The notes beneath the pieces were generated by a model that was given only the letters and a program-made list of their open reading frames with translations, had not been told where the DNA came from and did not search any database. The position numbers were made by a program, and so were the translations under genes. From Escherichia coli (lineage in GTDB: Bacteria; Pseudomonadota; Gammaproteobacteria; Enterobacterales; Enterobacteriaceae): DNA of 7,711 nt. This document shows positions 4,023 to 5,796 of the stretch, piece after piece. The stretch lies in assembly GCF_003334255.1 (NCBI RefSeq), contig NZ_QOWU01000094.1; one strand, given 5' to 3'. Position 1 is the stretch's first letter; the number at the start of each line of letters is the position of its first letter.

Positions 4023-4242
4023 ATCCTCACCCCGATGTACACGGATGGTGCAATATGTTTGAAAAGATCGGAGTCTACGGGGTAGTTTTGACAGCACACG
4101 TTGTTCTCAACGGCGCTAAAAAAACATACACATTAAAAATGTGGGTAATTATTTTGAAAGAAAGTCATATATAAAATAATAATACGAGAAATGTTTTCAT
4201 ATTTAGTGTACTGTATACGGCCATTTATACAGGAAAAGCCTA

Positions 4243-4412
4243 TGTCAGAACGTAAAAACTCAAAATCACGCCGTAATTATCTCGTTAAATGTTCCTGCCC
4301 AAACTGCACCCAAGAGTCAGAACACAGTTTTTCAAGAGTACAAAAAGGTGCCCTTTTGATCTGCCCTCATTGCAACAAAGTATTCCAGACAAATCTTAAA
4401 GCTGTAGCCTGA
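4243..4412 (+). CDS. ynfU: Small zinc-ribbon protein, 56 aa (possibly YnfU)
   Basis: ATG 4243 with AGGA about 7 nt upstream. Sequence MSERKNSKSRRNYLVKCSCPNCTQESEHSFSRVQKGALLICPHCNKVFQTNLKAVA has CxCxxC...CxxC and a basic N-terminus. Followed by a hairpin terminator. Track ORF starts at an upstream ATG (4191) without an SD. The name rests on my recollection of a Qin putative zinc-binding small protein and is uncertain. Confidence 0.55.
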
Positions 4413-4471
4413 TTGATTTTATTAGTAACAAGTATTTTTTATATTTTAATAATATATTTAAAGCAGATAAT

Positions 4472-4494
4472 AAAAAACCCGCCTGAGCGGGTTT
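4472..4494. terminator. Bidirectional intrinsic terminator between the zinc-ribbon ORF and the cspB 3' region
   Basis: AAAAAA-CCCGC-CTGA-GCGGG-TTT. The T-tract is stronger on the minus strand (TTTTTTATT), so it can end the cspB transcript. It also follows the plus-strand ORF ending at 4412. Confidence 0.6.
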
Positions 4495-4775
4495 GAGATT
4501 GTGGTGCTTTTTGTGGGAGTCATCCACTTACGCACTTTGTTTTGCCATGCCAGCAGTTAGCTTCTGCTGTAAAACTATTCATGCAGCAAACCTGCACTTC
4601 ACCACAATGGTTAGCATACTTTTCCTGATTAAGATTTTGCCAAATATGCTAGCCATTGTTTCATGTATTGGACCTCCTTACTTTTTATTAAAGAGATCCA
4701 ATATTCACTACTCTGTCCGTATCTCTACTCAGGCATCAGCCTTCTTCGTTATCGTATACAGACGAGCGATGAATT

Positions 4776-4991
4776 TTAATCAGTAATGATGACATTTGCT
4801 GCTGCAGGACCTTTAGCACCACTCTCTATAGAGAAGGTAACCTTTTGACCTTCAAATAAGGTTCGATAATTATCATTCTGAATCGCAGAAAAATGCACAA
4901 ACACATCTTTACTACCATCAACAGGAGAAATAAAGCCGAAACCTTTATCAGCGTTAAACCATTTTACTAAACCAGTCATTTTATTTGACAT
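4776..4991 (-). CDS. cspB: Cold shock protein CspB (CspA family), 71 aa
   Basis: [78 protein letters not shown] 7 nt upstream of ATG 4991. Confidence 0.9.
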
Positions 4992-5133
4992 TCTACATTC
5001 CTTAACTTGAGCCTTTCGGCATAAATGGTTTGCATAACAGAAACGACTTCGTACTTAATTGGAGAGACTCAAAGAAGGAATAAGTGAATAACACCTGAAA
5101 TGAGAACTGCTTTAGTAAACTACTTCGTATATC

Positions 5134-5150
5134 GTCTGTTCTTCAAACCG
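5134..5150 (-). promoter_or_regulatory. Cold-box-like element at the start of the cspB 5' UTR
   Basis: Minus-strand CGGTTTGAAGAACAGAC followed by TAAAGCAGT. It resembles the cspA leader start CGGTTTGACGTACAGAC...TAAAGCAGT as recalled. It sits about 159 nt upstream of the cspB ATG, the same UTR length as cspA. Confidence 0.45.
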
Positions 5151-5291
5151 ACGCAATCATTAACGCATAGTTGAACATATGAAGCAATGTTTATTTTAGA
5201 CATCCAGCCATCTTCAACCCCATCAAAAAACTATAGCTTTCTTCAGGAACGTGTGTATAGTGCGCCAAGTTATCAGTATTAAGGAATTTTT

Positions 5292-5504
5292 TTGTCCCGT
5301 AAAATGACAGGAATTGTCAAAACCTTTGACGGCAAAAGCGGCAAGGGTCTTATCACCCCATCCGATGGTCGTATCGATGTCCAGCTTCATGTTTCAGCGC
5401 TCAATCTCCGCGATGCAGAAGAAATTACCACCGGATTACGCGTGGAATTTTGCCGGATAAATGGTCTGCGTGGCCCTTCAGCTGCCAATGTTTACCTTTC
5501 ATGA
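5292..5504 (+). CDS. cspF: Cold-shock-domain protein CspF, 70 aa, apparent TTG start
   Basis: [70 protein letters not shown]. First codon at 5292 is TTG, 6 nt after AAGGA. The first in-frame ATG (5304) is 18 nt from the SD. Divergent from cspB. Confidence 0.85.
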
Positions 5505-5558
5505 GCTATATTAAAGCTTTAATTTCAGGCCCCATCGGATCACACATGGAGAGTTTTT

Positions 5559-5648
5559 ATGAATAACCCCGTCTGTCTTGATGACTGGTTGATTGGCTTT
5601 AAAAGCTTATGCTGTACTTTGGCCGTAATAGCTCTGCTAATAATATAA
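5559..5648 (+). CDS. Candidate small hydrophobic protein, 29 aa (hypothetical)
   Basis: Manual translation gives [33 protein letters not shown] lies 7 nt upstream of the ATG. Hydrophobic C-terminal half. Located between cspF and the 5797..5820 terminator. No homology evidence. Confidence 0.3.
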
Positions 5649-5796
5649 TAAGCAGACTCATTGTGTTTAGGGACATTGTACTGGAAGAAAACATTTTAAA
5701 CATCAGGCAAATAACCAAGTCACCAGCTAAATAATAAGTTAACAGACATGAGTCCCGGGATGAGATTCAACATTACCATTGCCCCATTTAAAGCAC

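Follow-up and report, generated by a model that had tools for sequence, protein, structure and literature searches.

The Q-to-holin interval of the Escherichia coli prophage Qin holds a cargo island of cold-shock and small-protein genes, mostly oriented against late transcription

Cargo between the gene for the late antiterminator Q and the holin gene of lambdoid phages is textbook knowledge, with stx as the standard example, and accessory genes lying antisense in the path of late transcription are common as well, as in the case of lambda bor and DLP12 nmpC. The surrounding Q cassette is defined as Q, the late promoter pR', a pause element dependent on sigma (SDPE), a terminator and the late genes, and RNA polymerase loaded with Q runs processively through sites of pausing and termination for thousands of base pairs (Yin et al., PMC9388147). 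In the lysogen, the constitutive pR' yields short RNAs that end at the terminator tR', such as lambda 6S RNA, StxS and IsrK (PMC7547250). Here, we analyze a stretch of 7,711 nt of E. coli DNA (contig NZ_QOWU01000094.1; the whole stretch is called the window below), which is 100% identical to K-12-type E. coli genomes and corresponds to positions 1636564-1644274 of E. coli K-12 MG1655 (NC_000913.3), within the annotated cryptic prophage Qin. Comparison with related phages identifies window 4035-5796 as an accessory cargo island (a 'moron') that occupies the Q-to-holin slot in a late operon of the lambda type, and we consider it highly probable that this reading holds as a whole, including readthrough of the island by Q-modified polymerase. 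The genes, their location in the prophage and the kind of arrangement were already known, and the locus is an ordinary example of a phage cargo region. A literature search found no paper on pR'/tR' of Qin or on the island interval as such. The present analysis thus documents the late promoter, pause element and terminator of Qin and fixes the boundaries of the cargo, with little meaning beyond careful annotation. At least 80% of segment 3800-6000, which includes the island, is found in 1616 of 5426 complete E. coli genomes.

The minus (late) strand reads ydfU, quuQ (ydfT), the interval, essQ, ydfR, rrrQ, rzpQ/rzoQ, cspI, ynfQ, ynfR, ynfN and gnsB (coordinates are collected in Table 1). QuuQ is assigned by homology to the Q-lambda family of antiterminators. 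Pfam family PF03589, which Yin et al. equate with this family in their classification (PMC9388147), is matched twice (E 9e-31 and 1e-19), the match to the lambda Q structure PDB 7UBM has an E of 7e-35, and QuuQ shares 34% identity with lambda Q over the full length, apart from an insertion of ~47 residues in QuuQ. This insertion lies in the zinc-ribbon arm (residues ~113-163, window 6189-6343) and brings four CxxC motifs; the arm also matches the Pfam domain DnaJ_CXXCXGXG (E 1e-5). The variant with the enlarged arm is present in 35 phage records at 80% identity or more, Stx2c converters included.

A predicted pR' lies 32 to 60 nt past the stop codon of quuQ, with a -35 hexamer TTGCAT (5894-5889), a 17-nt spacer and a -10 hexamer TAAAAT (5871-5866); a consensus promoter scan reports the same site as TTTGCA-18-TAAAAT. 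The minus strand after quuQ thus reads TTGCAT, 17 nt, TAAAAT, tttttc, AACGATGGG, where lambda pR' reads TTGACT, 17 nt, TAAATT, tgactc, AACGATGGG. Both the pause element and its 6-nt distance from the -10 hexamer are the same in Qin and lambda, and this spacing places the putative +1 at window 5859, within 1 nt of the late start (about 5858) proposed in an earlier note on this DNA that was made from the sequence alone. The distance from there to the ATG of essQ (4022) is 1837 nt, matching the 'about 1.8 kb' of that note. Its remark that the lambda holin gene follows pR'/tR' closely holds in relative terms, since that gene lies ~400 bp past tR' and ~600 bp past +1. By chance, 0.02 matches of the composite motif (-10 hexamer, 6 nt and AACGATGGG) would be expected in the window, where a single one is found; lambda and all 11 other loci with a Q of the Q-lambda family have one each, and the DLP12 and cspGH loci have none. 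The spacer of pR', equivalent in position to the Q binding element (QBE), is kept in phages with a QuuQ-type Q, with one position differing in Tritos.

Downstream of the predicted +1 by 39 nt, tR' forms a 10-bp GC-rich hairpin followed by UUUUGUGCUUU. The 72-nt leader folds with -30.4 kcal/mol (z -6.4). Because the sequence is palindromic, tR' also forms a terminator-like hairpin for the plus strand, that of cspF and ynfS (-14.7 kcal/mol). Its stem is conserved in phage mEp460 and in an Stx2c-converting phage. Four features of a Q cassette are present in Qin, namely the Q family, a pR' downstream of it, the pause element and a terminator that halts transcription when Q is absent, and the late genes (holin, endolysin and spanin, and terminase in phage PhiR42_1) lie downstream of the Qin-type tR'. 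The RefSeq record carries no annotation for pR', the pause element or tR' of Qin. A 51-codon open reading frame (ORF) over pR'/tR', annotated in PhiR42_1 (6032-6187), was treated as an annotation artefact.

Published RNA 3' ends agree with this module. Three Term-seq datasets from uninduced MG1655 contain a minus-strand 3' end at 1642356, i.e., window 5793 (Adams et al., PMC7815308). This is 8 nt past the tR' stem, the position that had been predicted before the tables were consulted, and therefore pR' fires and tR' terminates in the lysogen. The corresponding leader RNA of uninduced K-12 has a predicted length of ~67 nt (window 5793-5859, minus strand). By position it corresponds to lambda 6S RNA and StxS, but differs from these and from IsrK by its predicted length of only ~67 nt and by a very low small RNA (sRNA) score in a table derived from RIL-seq (ligation and sequencing of interacting RNAs) with Hfq, where it is listed as cspF.ydfT.IGR; with this score, a StxS-like sRNA role is not claimed. 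In one dataset, a further minus-strand 3' end is found at 5625, 168 nt beyond tR' and inside the antisense ynfS (PMC7815308), and therefore some RNA passes tR', or starts downstream of it, without induction.

The boundaries of the island emerge from phages that share both flanks. In mEp460 and the Stx2c-converting phage, Q is 93.6% identical to QuuQ. Their DNA can be aligned to that of Qin over pR', the pause element and as far as the tR' stem, but all similarity ends right past the U-tract. In a blastn comparison with the window, mEp460 matches 5949-5797 and shows no other match until 4034, 12 nt ahead of the essQ ATG, from where the homology runs downward; the match of DLP12 essD likewise starts at 4034. 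The cargo thus comprises 4035-5796, close to the 4023-5796 of the earlier note, and ynfU belongs to it and not to the holin module, since the homology around the holin gene starts only at 4034. The flanks are thus common to Qin, mEp460, the Stx2c phage and DLP12, with sharp boundaries, but the latter three are devoid of 4035-5796. Instead, the slot is filled in mEp460 by three sense ORFs, one of which is a DNA methylase, and in the Stx2c phage by a methylase together with stx2A and stx2B. The island also stands out by its GC content (36-40% compared to 46-53% in the flanks). A comparison of the Q-to-holin interval across related phages, which the earlier note had suggested as a check, thus bears out its reading of the interval as a moron island: phages with the same Q/pR'/tR' and holin carry unrelated DNA in between.

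The cargo is itself subject to loss. Phage Tritos has a clean 258-bp deletion of window 5495-5752, comprising ynfS and the stop codon of cspF; what remains of its cspF is heavily substituted and degraded, while cspB is intact. About 220 complete E. coli genomes match only up to the same left breakpoint (~5753) and do not have the ynfS stretch. Judged by these natural deletions, the antisense part of the island is dispensable.

Among described systems, the stx genes occupy the same slot, after pR'/tR' and before the holin gene. The Stx2c phage, with its QuuQ-type Q and the same pR'/SDPE/tR' module, confirms the parallel with stx drawn in the earlier note. Both cargoes lie in the path of Q-modified polymerase, and cspB has the sense orientation like stx. 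However, all identified cargo ORFs of the Stx2c phage (DNA methylase, stxA/B) are in sense and toxin output is Q-dependent, whereas three of the four genes in Qin are antisense and the cargo consists of cold-shock paralogues and small proteins. DLP12 nmpC is likewise an accessory gene between Q and holin that runs against the late strand (quuD plus, nmpC minus, essD plus), and DLP12 essD is 86% identical to essQ. It differs in comprising just one gene, which encodes a large porin and carries an IS5 insertion in K-12. DLP12 moreover looks like a different Q cassette, because quuD has only 127 aa and the lambda-type pR'/pause motif is absent. The lc porin gene of phage PA-2 is likewise situated between Q and the holin gene. 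Lambda bor (minus strand, just after Rz) and DLP12 borD resemble the antisense cargo of Qin as accessory genes that are expressed in the lysogen, oriented opposite to the late operon and traversed by late transcription. Lambda bor is nevertheless located downstream of the lysis genes, at the position of cspI in Qin, and not between Q and holin. In DLP12, borD, ybcV and ylcI are antisense further along the late path.

Whether late transcription crosses the island can be judged from intact relatives. The island is present at 96-100% identity in five records deposited as complete phages (PhiR42_1, HannyBb, PhiR63_1, 2H10 and Tritos). Phage 2H10 (island identity 96%) has a full lambda-like genome, from terminase through tail fibres to integrase, repressor, cro, replication, Q and lysis genes. 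PhiR42_1 matches window 71-7711 at 99.9% identity (five mismatches, two gaps); its EssQ, YdfR, RrrQ, RzpQ, CspB and CspI do not differ in sequence from the K-12 proteins, and its genome runs on beyond ynfO into intact terminase genes. Because complete phages place lysis and virion genes downstream of the island, and given the mechanism of Q, the late transcript would have to traverse it. From the geometry, cspB would be the cargo gene that this transcript reads in sense, and the other three, cspF, ynfS and ynfU, would be read in antisense. The earlier note had assigned gene content, strands and orientation in the same way, and all ORFs it named correspond to the annotated genes ynfU, cspB, cspF and ynfS, although its count of two antisense genes has to be raised to three.

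We propose the following course of events. In the lysogen, the constitutive pR' would yield only the ~67-nt leader ending at 5793, cspB would be driven by its cold-shock promoter and a 5' untranslated region (5'UTR) with a Rho-dependent attenuator, and cspF/ynfS and ynfU would be driven by plus-strand promoters. Once Q is made, as expected in intact relatives such as PhiR42_1, 2H10 and Tritos, it would load at the paused complex, and the modified polymerase would disregard tR', the Rho site of the cspB leader and the terminator shared by cspB and ynfU. It would then transcribe the 1.8-kb island into essQ-ydfR-rrrQ-rzpQ and subsequently the virion genes, producing an RNA with the sense sequence of cspB and the antisense sequences of cspF, ynfS and ynfU.

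Several points weigh against this account. The 17-nt spacer of pR', the putative QBE equivalent, is only 11/17 identical to that of lambda; Q-lambda binds its QBE as a monomer, a direct repeat with two protomers being typical of Q21 (PMC9388147). The start site of pR' is a prediction, and the crossing transcript with its antisense RNA would follow from the mechanism of the family and the layout of complete phages. In addition, a genomic-SELEX (systematic evolution of ligands by exponential enrichment) peak of the RpoD holoenzyme has been reported in the essQ-cspB spacer, assigned to 'essQ..rrrQ-ydfP' and flagged for H-NS (Shimada et al. 2014, PMC3946193), and some Q-independent transcription of the lysis genes would be compatible with it. 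In its strongest form, an alternative already named in the earlier note, this would mean that the lysis cassette has its own sigma70 promoter just upstream of essQ (TTTATA-16-AATAAT, the sequence given by Shimada et al.; 4175-4148, minus strand, scoring 9/12), such that crossing of the island would not be needed for lysis. The SELEX peak, however, gives no strand discrimination, and ynfU was absent from the annotation in 2014; a better site on the plus strand (TTGAAA-18-AATAAT, 10/12), within the same 40-bp patch and ~60 bp upstream of ynfU, accounts for the peak just as well. Moreover, no promoter travels with the holin gene, because the sequence that the holin modules of different phages have in common extends no more than 12 nt beyond the ATG on its upstream side, and in complete phages the virion genes are also located downstream and need late transcription. 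A constitutive holin-endolysin promoter would presumably harm the lysogen. We therefore regard a separate lysis promoter as very improbable and retain the Q-dependent crossing of the island.

A further counterpoint is that the module of K-12 itself may be inert. The K-12 QuuQ differs from the PhiR42_1 protein by a single residue, D118 for G118 (codon at window 6325-6327, minus strand), so that K-12 reads CEHCSDTG instead of the CxxCxGTG of its relatives. All five phage homologues and all four copies in wild E. coli prophages that were compared have G118. Residue 118 belongs to the first CxxCxGxG motif (a DnaJ-type zinc knuckle) of the QuuQ zinc arm, where it is the conserved glycine; the equivalent arm of lambda Q touches QBE positions 11-13 and sigma region 4 (PMC9388147). 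The G118D change may inactivate or weaken the K-12 antiterminator. In addition, a Rho-dependent site sensitive to bicyclomycin (BCM) has been mapped upstream of ydfU-quuQ (Adams et al., PMC7815308), and with both this upstream termination and the K-12-specific substitution, readthrough in K-12 is doubtful. To speak of 'prophage induction' for K-12 Qin itself is likewise questionable, the prophage being annotated as cryptic.

An alternative in line with these points is that K-12 simply contains domesticated, host-like genes next to a fossil Q/pR', with cspF, ynfS and ynfU never transcribed in antisense in this genome. It also agrees with the efficient termination at tR' in all three Term-seq datasets, and a literature search on the function of quuQ/ydfT found nothing relevant. 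On the other hand, the rest of the K-12 late module is intact, being 99.9% identical to a complete phage with identical lysis proteins, the effect of G118D is itself only predicted, and the 3' end at 5625 (one dataset) indicates that some RNA already extends beyond tR'. We consider a fossil state in K-12 a serious possibility, albeit somewhat on the improbable side. It qualifies the proposed crossing for K-12 only and does not contradict it for the element. As the K-12 late module is a near-perfect copy of that of a complete phage, Qin offers a convenient and safe model for a Q-modified polymerase that meets head-on cargo genes in the slot that bears stx elsewhere.

The cargo genes have their own signals. 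CspB combines a cold-shock protein with the long structured 5'UTR typical of the CspA family: gene and 5'UTR together give a full-length match to RF01766, the cspA thermoregulator of Rfam (4760-5152, minus strand; 158.8 bits with a gathering score of 78). The same Rfam search matches cspI (112.8 bits) but gives no RF01766 match for cspF. The cspB 5'UTR has been cloned from window 5152 by Adams et al., who report Rho-dependent termination, with BCM-sensitive 3' ends at 1641634 (window 5071, in the leader) and 1641537 (window 4974, at the ORF start) (PMC7815308). The control region between cspB and cspF is 98.8-99.3% conserved and cspB is intact in all relatives compared. CspF is a paralogue of the chromosomal cspH, and its gene shows 100% nucleotide identity between K-12 and the diverged copies of 2H10 and CFT073. 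YnfU belongs to the YnfU family (NCBIfam NF038384, E 1e-22). Both ynfS and ynfU are reportedly named in a ribosome-profiling preprint (10.1101/511675). The YnfS protein has been detected in K-12 through epitope tagging (PMC6001520). In general, coding and regulatory parts of the cargo are 98-100% conserved in 2H10 and CFT073, compared to 89-94% for the spacers. The island thus has the traits of accessory cargo, with its own promoter and terminator signals and expression from a repressed prophage.

The 3' ends within the island call for one correction. The earlier note described a bidirectional terminator, which corresponds to the hairpin at 4475-4494 (100% conserved, its U-tract being strong for minus-strand but weak for plus-strand transcripts). 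For the plus strand this is borne out by Term-seq, which has the transcripts of ynfU ending at 1641060, or window 4497 (PMC7815308). On the minus strand, the dominant 3' end of cspB mRNA is located instead at 4661-4663 (1641224 and 1641226), with very abundant reads that are by far the most abundant of the region (PMC7815308). This is ~170 nt upstream of the shared hairpin and at the base of another one (4661-4708; -18.4 kcal/mol, z -5.7), which lies ~70 nt past the cspB stop codon. The 3' arm of the latter consists of a perfect TAAGGAGGT followed by an ATG and an 11-codon ORF. We rejected this combination of a Shine-Dalgarno-like sequence and ORF as a gene: three of the 11 residues differ in close relatives, TAAGGAGGT is the hairpin arm itself and most of the RNA ends at the ATG. 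As the peptide is not conserved, 4661-4708 is probably a protective or processing 3' hairpin. A Trp_leader match of Rfam at 4469-4553 was rejected too (21.7 bits versus a threshold of 41, E 0.82); it corresponds to the terminator hairpin.

Table 1. Window coordinates of the features of the Qin late module and its cargo island.
Feature	Position	Strand	Basis or remark
quuQ (ydfT), Q-lambda-family late antiterminator	5926-6678	-	MG1655 annotation
pR', predicted late promoter	5866-5894	-	Sequence; consensus scan; lambda geometry
Predicted +1 (A, 5859) and sigma70-dependent pause element AACGATGGG	5851-5859	-	Equals lambda pR' +1 to +9
tR' hairpin (5797-5820) and U-tract	5793-5820	both	Terminator scan, folds, Term-seq
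ynfS, 29-aa small protein ('29-codon ORF' of the earlier note)	5559-5648	+	MG1655 annotation; antisense to late transcription
cspF, CspA-family paralogue	5292-5504	+	MG1655 annotation; antisense to late transcription
Divergent cspB/cspF control region	4992-5291	both	cspB 5'UTR at 5152-4992 (-)
cspB, cold-shock protein	4776-4991	-	MG1655 annotation; sole cargo gene in late sense
Stable hairpin in cspB 3' region	4661-4708	-	Fold and Term-seq
Hairpin terminator common to convergent cspB and ynfU	4475-4494	both	Scan, folds, Term-seq
ynfU, 56-aa zinc-ribbon protein ('zinc-ribbon ORF' of the earlier note)	4242-4412	+	MG1655 annotation; antisense to late transcription
AT-rich patch with two overlapping opposed promoter-like sites	4148-4183	both	Scan; SELEX peak; H-NS binding
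Lysis cassette: essQ 3807-4022, ydfR 3491-3802, rrrQ 2961-3494, rzpQ/rzoQ 2467-2964	2467-4022	-	Annotation

The orientation of the csp genes raises the question of whether they are integral phage functions, with CspB from the late transcript acting as RNA chaperone or antiterminator for the late genes, e.g., at low temperature. The cold-inducible cspB and cspI both lie in the sense of the late strand, cspB is kept in every relative whereas the Tritos lineage has lost the antisense cspF and ynfS, and Q would presumably override the Rho attenuator in the cspB leader. In general, CspA-family proteins can act as transcription antiterminators (PMC11228462). Yet, the csp genes are dispensable for the module, because mEp460 and the Stx2c phage combine the same Q, pR' and holin with a slot free of csp genes. 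We consider such a role of CspB unlikely and continue to regard the csp genes as cargo. A different function of the arrangement, quite unlikely in our judgment, would be a toggle operated by Q: the modified polymerase would override the Rho attenuator of the cspB leader and switch CspB on at any temperature, while head-on collisions and antisense RNA would silence the lysogen-expressed genes cspF, ynfS and ynfU. If true, the orientation pattern of the island would be selected for and not accidental, and it would become clear what function is served when cargo expressed in the lysogen lies antisense in the late operons of lambdoid phages, as it frequently does.

Some minor observations concern the surroundings of the island. 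EssQ starts with MKSMDKL and thus has a second Met at codon 4, presumably resembling the dual-start holin/antiholin arrangement of other lambdoid holins. Further along the late path to the terminase genes, ynfO and ydfO (window 193-894, plus strand) are also antisense; their homologues in PhiR42_1 sit between gnsB and the terminase genes, and a BCM-sensitive minus-strand site at 1637423 is antisense to ydfO (PMC7815308). Window 1-77 is 98.7% identical to an end of IS1 and the homology with PhiR42_1 stops at window 71, so that this IS1 remnant marks the point where K-12 Qin diverges from the intact phage. The remnant is missing from the MG1655 feature table for the window. Finally, the chromosomal locus of cspH and the divergent cspG-ymcF-ymcE-gnsA (NC_000913.3 1050963-1052240) adjoins IS1D and resembles both csp blocks of Qin fused to each other, the matching parts being window 4877-5500 and 1045-2108. 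The region upstream of cspG and its first 60-110 nt track cspB, its 3' part and ymcF track cspI-ynfQ, and gnsA matches gnsB. This pattern fits an ancient recombination between cspB and cspI, by which a Qin-like prophage would have lost its lysis cassette with only cargo left.

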